From positions 32,001 to 96,000 of the IMG/VR virus record IMGVR_UViG_3300005330_000014: a DNA stretch of 64,000 bases. One strand, 5' to 3'. The notes beneath the pieces were generated by a model. The model worked only from the letters and a program-made list of their open reading frames with translations, was not told where the DNA came from and did no database searches. A program made the position numbers and the translations under genes. The stretch is from a virus. Lineage: Duplodnaviria; Caudoviricetes. Below, in pieces: positions 19,142 to 59,567 of the stretch. Within the stretch, counting starts at the first letter, position 1, and every line of letters begins with the position of its first letter.

Positions 19142-19174
19142 TAGAAAAATTTAGAATTTTTTTAGCTTAGATTT

Positions 19175-19222
19175 GTACAGCAAAAAAGCCGCGCGCCTTA
19201 ACCCTGACGGGTGGACACGCGG
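19175..19222 (-). terminator. Terminator followed by TGTAC
   Basis: GCCGCG...CGCGGC, TTTTTTGCTGTAC. Confidence 0.75.
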
Positions 19223-19432
19223 CCTTTGTATTTATTTATTTAATTAAATTTTACATTCCTTGTTTCCGCGCCCATTTCTCGAATGCCTTATCGATACTCA
19301 ACTCCGCCACCTTTTCTTTTCGGTCCATCCGTTCATTTTGATTCGGGCGCGTATATTCGAGTTTTGTATTTTTGCGGGAGGTATGTTTTTTCATGAGTTA
19401 TTTTAGTTAGTAGTTATTTGTTTGTGGGAGAG

Positions 19433-31822: not shown

Positions 31823-32326
31823 TTATTTATTTCGCTTCTGACGGTATGGGAATAACTCGGGATATTTTGCACGATACCTGCAAACTATATTATTTATCTC
31901 TTTTATTTTCCATTTGGCTGACAGTTCTTGTACGCTTAAGCCATTTTTCCAATCAATAGAACGCTGTAAAGCTAATTCTTTAGACTGTTTTCTTATTCCG
32001 TCAAGCATGGTTGGAATTCCTAATGCATGTAATTTTGATTTTGCTTTGGAAGATATTTTACTACTTTTCCCGAGGATATAATCATTTAAACTATTTTTGC
32101 CCCGAATAGTCAAACGATTTTTACTAAAACCCTCCCATGCTCCACGCTCGGCCCATCTATCCAACATAATTTTAACATATTGTCTAGAAAATGGTTTCGC
32201 CCGGCCAATGACCTGTGCAGTAATCCGCCCTATATCAGCTAAAGTATTGAATTTAATATCCGGGGAATTTCTTGCTAATTCAATCATGAACCTATGAATC
32301 TTGCCCGGATTCTTAAAATGTTTCAT
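31823..32326 (-). CDS. Hypothetical basic protein (possible HTH)
   Basis: 167 aa; C-terminal LSVQELSAKW. Confidence 0.6.
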   Translation of the reverse strand: MKHFKNPGKIHRFMIELARNSPDIKFNTLADIGRITAQVIGRAKPFSRQYVKIMLDRWAERGAWEGFSKNRLTIRGKNSLNDYILGKSSKISSKAKSKLHALGIPTMLDGIRKQSKELALQRSIDWKNGLSVQELSAKWKIKEINNIVCRYRAKYPELFPYRQKRNK

Positions 32327-54528: not shown

Positions 54529-55560
54529 TCAAGGATTCATTTCTAATTTCAGAAAATAAACGAAATCCTTTTTAATTGTTTCTGAAGATTCTTTTTCCAG
54601 ATAAGAGATATAAGATTCTTGTGGATCGCCAGTTTCAATGAACCTTTTAAATCCATTTAAGGCCGCGCCCAAGTCTTTTCCTTCTAGTCCACTAATTTCT
54701 CGTGCAATATTGCCATTAAATTTCTTGCTATTTTCCCTAATCTTTAAAAACTTTTGTCTTTCTTCTTCAATTCTTTGCTTAATAGGCCATTTTTGGTCAA
54801 TTATATTAATCCAATCGCGTTTCCGCCCGAATTCATAATTTTTATCATATTGAGGATGCGCTTCCAGCCATTTAAGAAATTGCATGAAAACCGTCCGCTT
54901 TCTATTCCGCGTGCGATTCTGATGATTTAAATTTTCTAGTTTGAAATTTTTCCCACAAAAATATCTAGTGGAAGTAATATATATAAACATTTCTTCCAAG
55001 GTATCGAAGCCGCGCGAATAAACATCGCAATCATAACCTAAAAATTCCATGATTTCGCGCGGATTTTTAGATAGAGTCAAAGTATCAATAATATGGTCCG
55101 AAGAATTTTCGGTAGATTCATCAAATAACTTTTGTCTAATTGGAAATCTTAAACCCTGCCAACCGTGATTCAGCCCCATATGGTGAGCAGTTCTTCCAAT
55201 TAAATTATTACAATCGTTATAGGATAAATAATTAACAACACACTCAATATCTGCCGGTTGTCGGCAAATCAAATCACATTGGAAATTCTGAAAATCAAAA
55301 CTATATACTCCGTCATTGGTATGAATGGCGCGCGGATTAAACTGAGTTTCGATTACTTTCTTTAAATCAATTTTTTGATTATATTCAACCACTGCGTCCA
55401 AGTCACCAAAATCCGGCTTATTTCTGTAAAATGGTAACTTAAAAATTTTTAATCCGGCGGATTCAATTCTTTTAATTACTTCAGATTCTAATATTAAGTA
55501 CTCTGATTGAGGTAATCGAATAGTCTCGATGCCATATTTTTGTAATGCGACGCCGCCCAT
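54529..55560 (-). CDS. Pol-beta-superfamily nucleotidyltransferase-like protein
   Basis: FYRNKPDFGDLDAVV (GDxD), FQCDLI third acidic residue. Confidence 0.7.
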   Translation of the reverse strand: MGGVALQKYGIETIRLPQSEYLILESEVIKRIESAGLKIFKLPFYRNKPDFGDLDAVVEYNQKIDLKKVIETQFNPRAIHTNDGVYSFDFQNFQCDLICRQPADIECVVNYLSYNDCNNLIGRTAHHMGLNHGWQGLRFPIRQKLFDESTENSSDHIIDTLTLSKNPREIMEFLGYDCDVYSRGFDTLEEMFIYITSTRYFCGKNFKLENLNHQNRTRNRKRTVFMQFLKWLEAHPQYDKNYEFGRKRDWINIIDQKWPIKQRIEEERQKFLKIRENSKKFNGNIAREISGLEGKDLGAALNGFKRFIETGDPQESYISYLEKESSETIKKDFVYFLKLEMNP

Positions 55561-55582
55561 ATAATTAATAGATTATTACATA

Positions 55583-55626
55583 AATAGAAACGCGCGGAAC
55601 AAATCTTAGACTTTTGTCCGCGCGTT
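55583..55626 (-). terminator. Terminator closing the TROVE transcript
   Basis: AACGCGCGGA/TCCGCGCGTT stem followed by TCTATTT. Confidence 0.65.
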
Positions 55627-55639
55627 GCGTTGATTAGGC

Positions 55640-55690
55640 TAGATTCGGTTTTTTGTTTTTGCAGAACGTTTTAGTTGCTGAACGAATCTA
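55640..55690 (-). ncRNA. TROVE-associated hairpin repeat, copy 4
   Basis: TAGATTCG-TTCAGCAA...AAAC-CGAATCTA. Confidence 0.7.
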
Positions 55691-55716
55691 AAATTTAGAA
55701 GTAATTAAGTAATTAG

Positions 55717-57261
55717 TTAAATAGTCACTCTATTATACATTTCGTTATTGAGAGTTTCCAATACTTGGTCCAGTGGCGAATACTGACAACCACTAAGTAA
55801 AGTTTTAAATACGCTTGGAGAACTGCCGCTAACAAGCAGAATACCTTTTGCATCAGCCGTGGCTGCACAATTATTTTGTCTAGAATTTACATTCCAAAAT
55901 ACTAATTGAGGCATTTTATATCCAGCCGCCGCATATTTATCTTGAATAGTTTCTAGATTAGTTTTGCCGTTTTGAGGGCTATTAAATTCTACATCAGTAA
56001 TAACAAGAATTTGCGCGGGCATATCTTCCTGTTTGACATTACCTTTTACCGCTTGAATTAAAAGCATATCAAATACTGATTGTAAATTAGTTGAATAAGC
56101 AGGATTTTCTTGCAAACACCGGACTTTTTCTCGAATATTTGCGCCGACAACTTTTTGTAGCACTGGATTGTCTGAATAAGTAATAAAGTAGCCGCCGAAT
56201 GGTCCTTTGTTTTTTTCAGCAGTATAAATACCTAAACTGATAGCAGTTGCCATTGGACGGCCCATCATCGAACCGCTAACATCAACAACAGTTAAAATAT
56301 TTCTAGTTTTATCTTCCATGTAATCAGGAAGTGCATTCCACAAAATATCTAAGGTTTCATCATTATCCCGGGCCATGACTTTTTCAACAATTTCATAAGG
56401 GAAAAGTGCCCCGGCATTAATTTTAGTTTCCCCTTTTTTAACTGCATCAATAAACTTTTGATATCCGGTTTCATCATGCTTCATAAAGGCTTTTTTATAT
56501 CTTAAAGAAGCTTTAGATGGAACAGAGCGATAATTAATATCAGTCCAATGGTTATCTGACATTTTAACTTCAACTACATTAGAATAAGCGCGCAAAGCAG
56601 AAAGAGTTTTACGATATTGTTTAGGAGTCCAACCTAAATAGTGTCTGATTCGCGCCCCTAAAGCACGAGTAATAGTAGAAGAAGTATTTTCACTTGGCAT
56701 CCATTTAGCGCAAGTAGTAATTGGTTTATTGTCATTATACGCTTCTACGTCATTATTAAGAGAAACTTTAATGAATTCAAGTGCTTGATTTGCTACTTTA
56801 GTCCCGAAAAGTACAAATAAATCATCAAATCGACCATAATGAACAATATTACCCAAATTTTGGACTACAATTTCGGGATAATTATCGCCAAGATATTTAA
56901 GAATAATTCGGCAAGTGCGCCGTTCACCTTGTCCGCCGCGAATATTCCGAATATGGAATAACAATTTAATTGAAAGTAGCGGGTCTTCAGCAAAAGACTT
57001 AATAAATAAGTTAACAATATCTTGTTCAGGCCGGGAACGCAAGGCCGCACCCATAGCAAAGAAATCTACTAATGCGTTTAGAGTAGATTTATAAGTTGGC
57101 GCACCGTTTTCAGTCAAAGTCTTATTATCTTCTTTGATCAAACTAGAAAGAAGAGAGTTTGTAACCGGAGCGGCAGGCAATTTAACTTTAACTTTATTTG
57201 CTTTGCGTGGCGCAGTTACAAAATTATTACCAATTTTTTGTTTTTTAGTTGCAGTTTTCAT
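55717..57261 (-). CDS. TROVE/Ro60-like protein with C-terminal vWA domain (DUF2828 type)
   Basis: TENGA..YKST.NALVDFF, F..R.IRGGQGER, KWMPSE, VVDVSGSM MIDAS, ITDVEF, LVFWNV, SGSSP. Confidence 0.88.
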   Translation of the reverse strand: MKTATKKQKIGNNFVTAPRKANKVKVKLPAAPVTNSLLSSLIKEDNKTLTENGAPTYKSTLNALVDFFAMGAALRSRPEQDIVNLFIKSFAEDPLLSIKLLFHIRNIRGGQGERRTCRIILKYLGDNYPEIVVQNLGNIVHYGRFDDLFVLFGTKVANQALEFIKVSLNNDVEAYNDNKPITTCAKWMPSENTSSTITRALGARIRHYLGWTPKQYRKTLSALRAYSNVVEVKMSDNHWTDINYRSVPSKASLRYKKAFMKHDETGYQKFIDAVKKGETKINAGALFPYEIVEKVMARDNDETLDILWNALPDYMEDKTRNILTVVDVSGSMMGRPMATAISLGIYTAEKNKGPFGGYFITYSDNPVLQKVVGANIREKVRCLQENPAYSTNLQSVFDMLLIQAVKGNVKQEDMPAQILVITDVEFNSPQNGKTNLETIQDKYAAAGYKMPQLVFWNVNSRQNNCAATADAKGILLVSGSSPSVFKTLLSGCQYSPLDQVLETLNNEMYNRVTI

Positions 57262-57285
57262 AATTAGTTAGTAGTTAAAAAAGAC

Positions 57286-57336
57286 TAGACAAATTTTGTT
57301 TCTTATCAAGAGAAGTTTAATTACTGGATTTGTCTA
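57286..57336 (-). ncRNA. TROVE-associated hairpin repeat, copy 3
   Basis: TAGACAAA-TCCAGTAA...-TTTGTCTA. Confidence 0.7.
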
Positions 57337-57380
57337 AATTGATAAAGTTAAGGAAATGTTTAGGTATTAGGTAAATAGAC

Positions 57381-57427
57381 TAGATGCAGTTTGTTCCATG
57401 AAAAGGGTTAATTGCTGGATGCATCTA
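57381..57427 (-). ncRNA. TROVE-associated hairpin repeat, copy 2
   Basis: TAGATGCA-TCCAGCAA...AAAC-TGCATCTA. Confidence 0.7.
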
Positions 57428-57497
57428 AATTGAGAAAGTTTAAAGAGGTTATTTAGCTATAGCTTATAGTTTATATAATTTCAGAATTTAAAAATAC

Positions 57498-57548
57498 GAG
57501 ATTCAGTTTTTTCTTTACGTAGAAGATTTTGTTTGCTGGATGAATCTC
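57498..57548 (-). ncRNA. TROVE-associated hairpin repeat, copy 1
   Basis: GAGATTCA-TCCAGCAA...AAAC-TGAATCTC. Confidence 0.7.
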
Positions 57549-57574
57549 TGACCTATGACACAATGAAGGATTTT

Positions 57575-57602
57575 AGATTAGCATCTATTCCGCGATAGTC
57601 AA
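57575..57602 (-). promoter_or_regulatory. Sigma-70-type promoter for the hairpin-array/TROVE transcript
   Basis: TTGACT-N16-TAATCT with extended TG. Confidence 0.8.
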
Positions 57603-57659
57603 GTTTTTTCTGAAATTATTTTTTCTTGGGTTGTTTTAGTTACTTCTTTTTGACACTTA

Positions 57660-58013
57660 CTAAGAATGTCCGCCGGAATCAGTACGAAAAACTGAATAAA
57701 CACCTTCACTACGATATTTAATCAATACTTCCGTTTGATTTTCAAGATATTCTTGTAATACAGGAATCAATGATTCATCCTCCACGGTGAAATCAAAGGG
57801 TTGGATACCAACCGTTCCGCTGCCGCCACTCATGCCGCCGCGAATTAGTTGTCCTTCCCAAGTATCACAAAGAATTCCACTCTTATTTAATCGTACAATT
57901 TGCCCAATTTTTTCGCCTTGGGATGGATTATTTAGACCACAGCCGCCCAAAGACATAGCGATTGTAGTAATTGACAGGATTAGGGATAGCAACGTTAGTT
58001 TATTGATTTTCAT
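57660..58013 (-). CDS. Lipoprotein; probable frameshifted C-terminus extending to 57640
   Basis: LGG/C lipobox; paralog of 48526-48909. Confidence 0.72.
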   Translation of the reverse strand: MKINKLTLLSLILSITTIAMSLGGCGLNNPSQGEKIGQIVRLNKSGILCDTWEGQLIRGGMSGGSGTVGIQPFDFTVEDESLIPVLQEYLENQTEVLIKYRSEGVYSVFRTDSGGHS

Positions 58014-58934: not shown

Positions 58935-59567
58935 CTATACTGACTTTATTGAAACGGGCCAAACATAATCTCCCCGGGGATTTTCTTTAAAGTGTCCGTA
59001 ATGATTCTTATCATAAACCTTGATTTTGTTTTTGTCAATAAATTTTTTCAATTTCAAAACATCGCCATAATCTAATTGATTTTTTACTTTTCCAAAATTT
59101 TCTTTAAGCCAATTGTTTATATTTCTTAGTTTAAGATGTTTTTTGATAGCCGCGCAGTAAATATCAGCAAATCCTTTTTTCTTTAAGTTAGATCGCATAC
59201 CTGAAATTATATCAGGACGACCCCACCAAGCAGGATTTTGATAGTTTCTTATATAATTAGGCCAGTTAGATTGTTTTTTCTTAAATTCGTTAAGAATTAC
59301 CCAAGCTTTGTTATATATTTGACTATTTTTAGCTATATCGCGATTTTGACACTCGCGCCAAATACTAGTTATATATCTAAATAGCGTAACCTCATGACTA
59401 ATCCATTGTTTGACTGTAGGATGGTTGCGCCACGGATTTTTCTTATTATTAACCAATATATCTAAAATTTGGTAATTTTCTAAAAGCATTTTAAAAAGTC
59501 TTTTTCCGTCAAGTAGCCGCGCGGACTTTTTAAGATCATAAGAATAATCACAAATAAAGCTTTGCAT
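58935..59567 (-). CDS. Pyrimidine-dimer DNA glycosylase (endonuclease V / MSMEG_6728-like)
   Basis: MQSF...SA..LD.KRL.K...E..QIL....W.NHP.V..W. Confidence 0.75.
   Translation of the reverse strand: MQSFICDYSYDLKKSARLLDGKRLFKMLLENYQILDILVNNKKNPWRNHPTVKQWISHEVTLFRYITSIWRECQNRDIAKNSQIYNKAWVILNEFKKKQSNWPNYIRNYQNPAWWGRPDIISGMRSNLKKKGFADIYCAAIKKHLKLRNINNWLKENFGKVKNQLDYGDVLKLKKFIDKNKIKVYDKNHYGHFKENPRGDYVWPVSIKSV

Follow-up and report, generated by a model that had tools for sequence, protein, structure and literature searches.

Hairpin RNAs of a conserved, covarying family accompany DUF2828 Ro60-like genes in phages and are candidate Y-like partners of the encoded protein

Introduction

Ro60 and the Y RNAs together make up a conserved RNA-surveillance particle, and to our knowledge only one type of bacterial Y RNA has been catalogued. 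Ro60 proteins take up Y RNA on the outside of the ring and the ends of misfolded RNAs in its central cavity, and YrlA-type Y RNAs are stable small RNAs to which the Ro60 orthologue is bound in vivo. The present analysis concerns a locus in a 64,000-nucleotide stretch of phage DNA (hereafter the window; positions 32,001 to 96,000 of IMG/VR record IMGVR_UViG_3300005330_000014, Duplodnaviria; Caudoviricetes), in which a gene for a 514-aa Ro60-like protein (DUF2828 plus DUF7788) is accompanied on its own strand by four hairpins of about 50 nt. The record from which the window is taken is a 208-kb phage genome, 95% complete.

In the described bacterial systems, the Y RNAs are encoded on the strand of rsr, no more than 4 kb away from it, and arise by cleavage of a shared precursor (PMC4201824). 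Several Y RNAs are processed from a precursor upstream of rsr, with Ro60 contacted through a motif in the RNA's 5' strand, and the tRNA-like part of the YrlA RNAs attracts tRNA enzymes (PMC4201824). Among phages, the phiRo60 protein of Thermus phage phiLo is encoded with the RNAs Yrl1 and Yrl2, whose binding has been documented by electrophoretic mobility shift assay and cryo-electron microscopy (PMC12135203; PDB 9KOP, 9L5Y). In addition, gp130 of the felixounavirus Bas63, a protein with a Ro60-like fold, counters the bacterial Ppl defence (10.1101/2024.10.10.617714); the same report merely suggests that some of the annotated tRNAs near gp130 may be Y RNAs, and defines no RNA.

Results

Four hairpins with covarying stems and a conserved loop

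The hairpins of the window (hp1 to hp4) are 47-51 nt long (n=4), lie in the sense orientation on the minus strand and are each closed by a perfect 8-bp outer stem, P1. Three are found 25-290 nt upstream of the gene, namely hp1 (57498-57548; P1 GAGATTCA/TGAATCTC) and hp2 (57381-57427; TAGATGCA/TGCATCTA), both with a loop that starts TCCAGCAA, and hp3 (57286-57336; TAGACAAA/TTTGTCTA; loop start TCCAGTAA), the end of which is separated from the start codon by 25 nt. The fourth, hp4 (55640-55690; TAGATTCG/CGAATCTA; loop start TTCAGCAA), is located in the 3' untranslated region (UTR), 27 nt downstream of the gene. The lower half of the stem is near-constant (TAGA/TCTA; GAGA/TCTC in hp1), yet the upper half is variable and complementary in all four. 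Each loop begins with YCAGYAA, continues into a small inner hairpin (UCUU-CUACGUA-AAGA in hp1, followed by AAAAAC; UUCU-CUUGAUA-AGAA in hp3) and ends in an A-rich run before the 3' strand. A preliminary description of this DNA, made from the letters alone, had claimed that the outer stems differ in sequence yet stay paired, and that the first loop bases and the A-rich 3' side are conserved; the former holds in 4/4 hairpins and the latter in the alignment of the four copies.

A covariance model built from the four window copies (R1) scores them at 84-87 bits (85.7 bits for hp1), the best other match in the 64-kb window reaching 18.8 bits. With an improved model rebuilt from 43 members (R2), the scores are 68.3 bits for hp1, 73.4 for hp2, 68.4 for hp3 and 72.4 for hp4, and a search of the whole 208-kb genome returns these four copies only, with the next best match at 19 bits. 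The stability of the single folds is ordinary, with z-scores from -0.6 to -2.8 (-2.8 for hp2, minimum free energy (MFE) -11.7; -2.4 for hp4) and a value of -0.3 for the whole leader. Because the thermodynamics of the single hairpins are unremarkable, the case made here rests on conservation and covariation rather than on stability.

One further site in the window, on the plus strand (19152-19248), reads UUAGAUUUG-UA-CAGCAA-AAAA followed by a GC-rich hairpin, and scores 13-19 bits with all three models used in this work (R1, R2 and the R3 profile described below). It was treated as a chance match, or a decayed copy, given its low score and the lack of a 3' partner strand for P1.

A conserved RNA family linked to DUF2828 genes

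For comparison, loci were sampled by gene, from 80 viral contigs with DUF2828 homologues (38-46% identity) and seven contigs of closer homologues; the 88 DUF2828 loci amount to 631 kb. R1 yields 54 matches in the fetched loci, all 54 on the strand of the DUF2828 gene, and R2 yields 139 matches at E<=1 in the 631 kb, with a strand bias of 139:0 toward the gene's strand. A loose regular expression for a stem followed by CAGC had proved too permissive (433 matches on the plus and 285 on the minus strand) and was replaced by the covariance models.

In the family alignment, 94.7% of P1 cells are paired, compared with 67.1% after shuffling, and 0/500 shuffles reach the observed score. Cells in which both partners have changed number 317 against 107 expected, with compensatory changes in 8/8 pairs among 133 distinct sequences, and sliding the partner strand by 1-3 columns as a control drops the pairing to 26-55%. 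The covariation across copies that the preliminary description had proposed is thus strong for P1. The loop that follows P1 reads (U/A)(A/C)CAGCAA, with positions 3-8 (CAGCAA) conserved at 81-94% each, and its last seven positions are 56-68% A; the conservation of this loop sequence spans phages of Actinobacteria, Firmicutes and Proteobacteria. Statistics do not support the inner hairpin, which is weak (mean z -0.9) and most often has a loop of 7 nt. The resulting consensus, referred to below as the handle, comprises a P1 of 8-9 bp with a conserved bottom (UAGA...UCUAG) and a freely covarying top, and an asymmetric internal loop in which YCAGYAA(UU) stands directly 3' of the 5' strand, facing an A-rich 3' strand, above which a small hairpin closes the structure.

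Membership of this CAGCAA-handle family was defined by a covarying 8-9-bp P1 with a UAGA/UCUA(G) base, CAGCAA 1-3 nt past the 5' strand, an A-rich 3' strand and location on the DUF2828 gene's strand, all of which are found in the four window copies (R2 68-73 bits). The elements are therefore a conserved, covarying RNA family. The Rfam scan that had been proposed earlier, run on the window, the related locus L084 and 17 related loci at the gathering thresholds and at E<=10, returned only tRNAs, one RAGATH-33 and chance matches, and no Rfam family matches the hairpins.

The proposed search for linkage to DUF2828 or TROVE genes revealed strict same-strand linkage to DUF2828. At least one element occurs at 71/88 DUF2828 loci, including 14 of the 22 loci that are free of tRNA genes, and 64 of the 135 hairpin-type matches are no farther than 200 nt from an end of the gene, 41 of them on the upstream and 23 on the downstream side. 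One DUF2828 gene and four handle copies are present in the window's own 208-kb genome, and in five other phage records of 180-200 kb 17/17 matches lie on the gene's strand, at most 12.5 kb upstream. Conversely, the tRNA-bearing phages T4, T5, Bxz1, LP65 and SPO1, which have no DUF2828 gene, give no match above 24.7 bits; Bxz1 carries a canonical Ro60 but no DUF2828. PhoH was used as an unlinked marker for DUF2828-negative relatives, and since this search found no related contigs the negative set consists of these five well-known phages only. As the loci were chosen by DUF2828, the co-occurrence across genomes rests on six whole positive and five negative genomes.

Copies beside the gene are also present in cultured phages, including mycobacteriophage Faith1 (36 bits, in an unannotated gap) and Bacillus phage FADO (48 and 39 bits), and in Felixounavirus CL1 a copy of 24.5 bits is situated inside the tRNA array beside the DUF2828 gene. 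In very different phages, then, this RNA family is tied by position and strand to DUF2828 genes.

A divergent Ro60-like protein

The gene itself (55717-57261, minus strand) encodes a 514-aa protein with Pfam matches to PF11443 (DUF2828, 1.8e-42) and PF25043 (DUF7788, 5.6e-42), the former corresponding to the helical-repeat part and the latter to the von Willebrand factor A (vWA) domain. The Pfam search gave these two families only and no TROVE match, a profile built from 27 homologues found no Protein Data Bank (PDB) chain at E<=10, and by sequence the protein is assigned to PHROG 850, 'RNA-binding protein' (5.7e-135). The AlphaFold2 model of the protein (predicted local distance difference test 81.4, predicted template-modelling (TM) score 0.75), in contrast, has Ro60, Rsr or phage Ro60 structures at ranks 1-13 of a Foldseek search of the PDB (E 7e-8 to 8e-5), among them Xenopus 1YVR (E 7e-8), human Ro60, Deinococcus Rsr and the Ro60 of Thermus phage phiLo. 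These alignments are full length (507-588 columns) with TM scores of 0.34-0.55 and about 12% identity, and after rank 13 the ranking continues with vWA domains containing the MIDAS (metal ion-dependent adhesion site). In the 27 homologues the MIDAS residues D327, S329 and S331 (D327-x-S329-x-S331) are nearly invariant, and T391 and D423 are invariant.

Thus, the helical-repeat ring with a vWA domain and the MIDAS of Ro60 are both found, the former in the predicted model, and a TROVE match by sequence is not. Because the modelled fold is Ro60-like and the MIDAS is conserved, but no TROVE domain is recognised by sequence, the protein is classed as a divergent Ro60-like ring protein or paralogue rather than a canonical TROVE member. 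The preliminary description had called the gene 'TROVE-vWA'; the vWA domain and, in the model, the Ro60-like fold stand, while the TROVE assignment is not supported by Pfam or by the profile.

Homologues of DUF2828 are present in 711 of 50,697 cultured phage records, in Felix O1-like, Listeria, Staphylococcus, Campylobacter and Vibrio phages and mycobacteriophages among others, and, along about 90% of the window protein, the felixounavirus proteins are 35% identical to it. At the nucleotide level, blastn of the region against the same 50,697 records gave 0 matches. A literature search for DUF2828 returned papers on plants and tardigrades, none of them relevant.

Fusions of the handle to tRNA-like domains in relatives

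In relatives of the window locus the same handle is joined to tRNA-like domains. The clearest case is a 123-nt element after the DUF2828 gene of L084 (L084:5540-5662; MFE -35.7, z -4.3), in which P1 (AAGAUACAU/AUGUAUCUU) and ACAGCAA surround a small hairpin, a T arm (GCCGGGUUCGAGUCCCGGC), an acceptor-like stem of 7 bp closed by GAAA, and a D arm. This is the topology of YrlA among the bacterial Y RNAs (PMC4201824), and further cases of the YrlA type are L061:2094-2236, L024:4152-4291, L019:5370-5516 and L086:8723-8877. When the interiors of 14 long members were rotated and submitted to ARAGORN, a tRNA was recovered for two, and two more enclose an unpermuted tRNA; the acceptor-like stems of the remaining members are too short for ARAGORN.

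A second arrangement emerges when ARAGORN is run on the loci with introns allowed, which gives 55 tRNA-like genes, each with a permuted handle and each in the orientation of the DUF2828 gene. Here the 'intron' reads, in order, A-rich strand, 3' half of P1, capping loop, 5' half of P1 and CAGCAA. For this tRNA-embedded form a sequence-only profile (R3) was used, as RNAalifold found no base pairs in the MAFFT alignment; R3 has 109 matches in the loci, all on the gene's strand. Inspection by eye shows that in L010, L061 and L084 the handle separates the D arm from the anticodon-arm-like hairpin, and that in L016:5112-5238 it is inside the anticodon arm.

The window hairpins correspond to the handle and the anticodon-arm-like hairpin of these RNAs, with the rest of the tRNA body missing. 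No tRNA-fused handle is found in the window's own genome, where 0/7 tRNAs carry one and the tRNA nearest to the locus is 6.6 kb away. The earlier reading, in which the hairpins are without a tRNA-like YrlA fold and so may be a distinct family, is accordingly half correct: the fold is indeed absent from the window copies, but in the relatives the identical handle carries a permuted tRNA-like domain or is embedded in tRNA-like genes. Since relatives fuse the identical handle to tRNA-like domains, the window RNAs are best placed as stripped-down members of a tRNA-related Y-like family.

Several neighbouring tRNA-like features were observed in addition. In a fourth arrangement, P1 and CAGCAA surround a complete unpermuted tRNA (L050:1433-1577 and L024:5869-6013; Thr tgt and Leu taa). 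The handle-bearing tRNA-like gene L010:1852-1965 has an apparently intact Lys anticodon arm (UCGC-CUUUUAA-GCGA) and might still be decoding. A tRNA directly after the handle RNAs of L084 (L084:5725-5807; 38 bits; Pro(agg) by ARAGORN) has an unusually long anticodon/variable region, and a RAGATH-33 RNA (RF03102; 122.7 bits, just above the cut-off) lies in the tRNA array upstream of the DUF2828 gene of L055 (L055:653-781).

Organisation of the putative transcription unit

Along the minus strand of the window, a promoter-like site is followed by hp1, hp2 and hp3, the 514-aa open reading frame, hp4 and a terminator, and every coordinate of this layout, which the preliminary description had proposed, was confirmed. 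The promoter-like site (57575-57602) consists of TTGACT (57602-57597), a 16-nt spacer and a TG-extended TAATCT (TGC-TAATCT; hexamer 57580-57575). A promoter at this position is plausible from the sequence; a consensus promoter scan does not list the site, the -10 hexamer of which has 3/6 matches. At the other end, an intrinsic terminator is predicted from the fold (55583-55626, minus strand), with a GC-rich stem followed by UUUCUAUUU (-20 kcal/mol, z -4.1; 0/200 shuffles as good). Runs of U are also seen on the minus strand after hp1 (GUAUUUUU, 57498-57490) and hp3 (GUCUUUUUU, 57286-57276); these could represent partial termination or mark 3' ends, and are not a feature of the family as a whole.

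Directly downstream of the terminator is a gene of 343 aa (54529-55560, minus strand) that matches PHROG 24943, 'DNA polymerase' (1.8e-34), has no Pfam match and is not conserved as a DUF2828 neighbour among the seven closer contigs. A gene 1.7 kb upstream (58935-59567, minus strand) encodes a pyrimidine-dimer DNA glycosylase (Pyr_excise, 1.6e-14), and a member of the same family is also near the DUF2828 gene in the contig of homologue P0008. Near-identical DNA to window positions 55300-57900 occurs in several rhizosphere metagenome runs of 2017, which therefore places the phage in a plant-root soil habitat; the source sample may be among these runs.

Discussion

Taken together, the locus is probably one transcription unit of a phage Ro60-like ribonucleoprotein, in which the hairpins would serve as minimal Y-like partners of the DUF2828 protein. 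By analogy with the described systems, they most likely represent a so far undescribed class of such partners, because proximity to the gene, location on the same strand, multiple copies, a conserved motif after the stem and tRNA-like relatives all mirror the arrangement of Rsr and its Y RNAs. The ring protein would bind the handle, in which the conserved motif occupies the place equivalent to that of the Y RNA motif (GGUCCGA/GNCGAA). The hairpins could be released from the mRNA, or act within its UTRs, as minimal Y-like RNAs, and in either form could gate the RNA-binding surface of the protein, stabilise it or feed back on their own mRNA, so that they possibly double as autoregulatory sites. 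The system probably acts on RNA, and on tRNA in particular, in the course of infection, or else in counter-defence, the latter being suggested because the Felix O1-type Ro60-like protein at the felixounavirus DUF2828 position counters Ppl.

Several observations weigh against this interpretation. The hairpins are AU-rich and thermodynamically unremarkable, and 17/88 DUF2828 loci have no element in the flanks covered. In some phages the elements are 5-12 kb from the gene, inside tRNA arrays. The handle, with its UAGA stem, CAGCAA and A-rich strand, differs from the GNCGAAN0-1G motif of the Y RNAs, and no Rfam family, the Y RNA models included, reaches E<=10 in the hairpin region. In the one RNA library that contains the locus, a rhizosphere metatranscriptome, two short contigs fall in the coding sequence and none on the hairpins, which, with DNA carry-over possible, counts in neither direction. 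Finally, gp130 supplied from a plasmid or inserted in T7 was sufficient against Ppl (10.1101/2024.10.10.617714), and for this reason the RNAs may not be needed for anti-Ppl activity.

The hairpins could instead be purely cis-acting, bound in the 5' and 3' UTRs by the DUF2828 protein or another factor, which would control how its own mRNA is translated or how stable it is, without any free small RNA being produced. All four hairpins are within the gene's transcription unit, hp3 ends only 25 nt before the AUG, and 41 of the 135 family members are no more than 200 nt upstream of the gene, as would be expected of such elements. Many relatives, however, are kilobases away among tRNA genes and others form part of separate RNAs of tRNA-like or YrlA-like type, which fits RNAs acting in trans, and a 3'-UTR copy together with a tandem triplication would be superfluous for simple autoregulation. 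An exclusively cis-acting role is thus considered unlikely, although autoregulation can coexist with a function of the hairpins as Y-like partners.

Less probable again is that the elements belong to tRNA arrays, as processing signals, spacers or intron-like inserts, and that DUF2828 genes are merely often found beside tRNA clusters. Copies do alternate with tRNA genes in L027, L016, L055, L086 and L087, and the handle is internal to 55 tRNA-like genes. The nearest tRNA in the window's genome is nevertheless 6.6 kb from the locus, with the handle in 0/7 tRNAs; hairpins are found beside the gene in 14/22 tRNA-free DUF2828 loci; and T4, T5, LP65, SPO1 and Bxz1, which bear tRNAs but no DUF2828, are also without the element.

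A marginally smaller chance is given to the hairpins being partners or substrates of some other host or phage protein, such as a nuclease, ligase or modification enzyme, or defence decoys, in which case the Ro60-like protein would be only a co-inherited neighbour. That the DUF2828 protein binds the hairpins is something we infer, the gene neighbourhoods otherwise vary and so leave room for a host factor, and enzymes that act on tRNA would be expected to be drawn to the tRNA-like versions, as they are to YrlA (PMC4201824). Against this, DUF2828 is the sole gene common to all the fetched loci, though these were chosen by DUF2828, and the copies peak abutting the gene on its own strand, as in the arrangement of rsr and the Y RNAs. 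Chance or selfish repeats (similar to miniature inverted-repeat transposable elements) or leaky terminators, devoid of function at the RNA level, could account for the U runs after hp1 and hp3 and for the ordinary fold stability, but are strongly disfavoured, and very improbable, in view of the compensatory changes in 8/8 stem pairs over 133 distinct sequences, the strict 139:0 strand bias and a loop conserved across phages of three bacterial phyla.

Beyond the reading of the hairpins as Y-like partners of the DUF2828 protein, a broader proposal is put forward tentatively, with the balance tilted against it: the handle may define a large, so far undescribed class of phage RNAs on tRNA scaffolds, with three circularly permuted topologies, on which the DUF2828 ring docks for counter-defence. 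The topologies would be a free mini hairpin, a YrlA type that ends at the handle, and a tRNA type that ends at the acceptor stem and has the handle as an insert between its D and anticodon arms. By docking, the ring would protect, repair or hijack tRNA-like molecules and, if tRNAs of the L010 type decode, the handle would be a protein-docked extra arm on working tRNAs.

A defined handle offers a testable ligand for the DUF2828 family and accounts, in many phage genomes, for gaps without annotation and for odd 'tRNAs'. For studies of binding and structure, the 50-nt minis of the window are the smallest substrates that occur naturally. The three permuted topologies bear on the evolution of tRNA-derived regulatory RNAs. 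Also significant is that, in one felixounavirus, the protein with a Ro60-like fold encoded at the corresponding locus overcomes a bacterial defence (10.1101/2024.10.10.617714).

Comparison with described Ro60 systems

Compared with Rsr and its RNAs (YrlA/YrlB, Yrn1/Yrn2; PMC4201824), the window locus likewise combines a ring protein bearing a vWA domain and MIDAS with several small RNAs beside the gene, upstream, on the same strand and, as far as the layout indicates, on one precursor. In both systems the RNAs have a terminal stem, the 5' strand of which is immediately followed on its 3' side by a conserved purine-rich motif, and in both there is one class of simple hairpins, the permuted tRNA-like class being represented here by the relatives in L084 and L061. 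The window protein, however, is DUF2828/DUF7788 and not Pfam TROVE, with about 12% identity in the structural alignments, and the window RNAs, unlike YrlA, are only about 50 nt long and have no tRNA-like part. The handle system also includes a third topology, with a capped handle and with the ends of the RNA at a tRNA acceptor stem. When held against the features of YrlA-type RNAs, the window copies share the location within 4 kb on the gene's strand and lack both GNCGAAN0-1G and a tRNA-like domain. Because the handle does not fit the YrlA definition, and the protein does not fit the TROVE sequence definition, the locus would represent a Ro60/Y RNA variant outside the catalogued families.

With regard to Bas63, the window phage shows no relationship in its DNA, and its locus is without a tRNA array. 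In Bas63 gp130 lies directly upstream of a tRNA array; the DUF2828 gene of CL1 is in precisely the same place, and the array there contains a handle RNA; from this synteny we infer that gp130 is a DUF2828 orthologue. In phiLo, as here, a phage Ro60 homologue is encoded with hairpin Y-like RNAs just upstream of its gene, and the phiLo Ro60 structures are among the best matches to the model of the window protein. The phiLo RNAs were chosen by the canonical CGAA motif, whereas the handle RNAs carry another conserved sequence and are linked to tRNA scaffolds.

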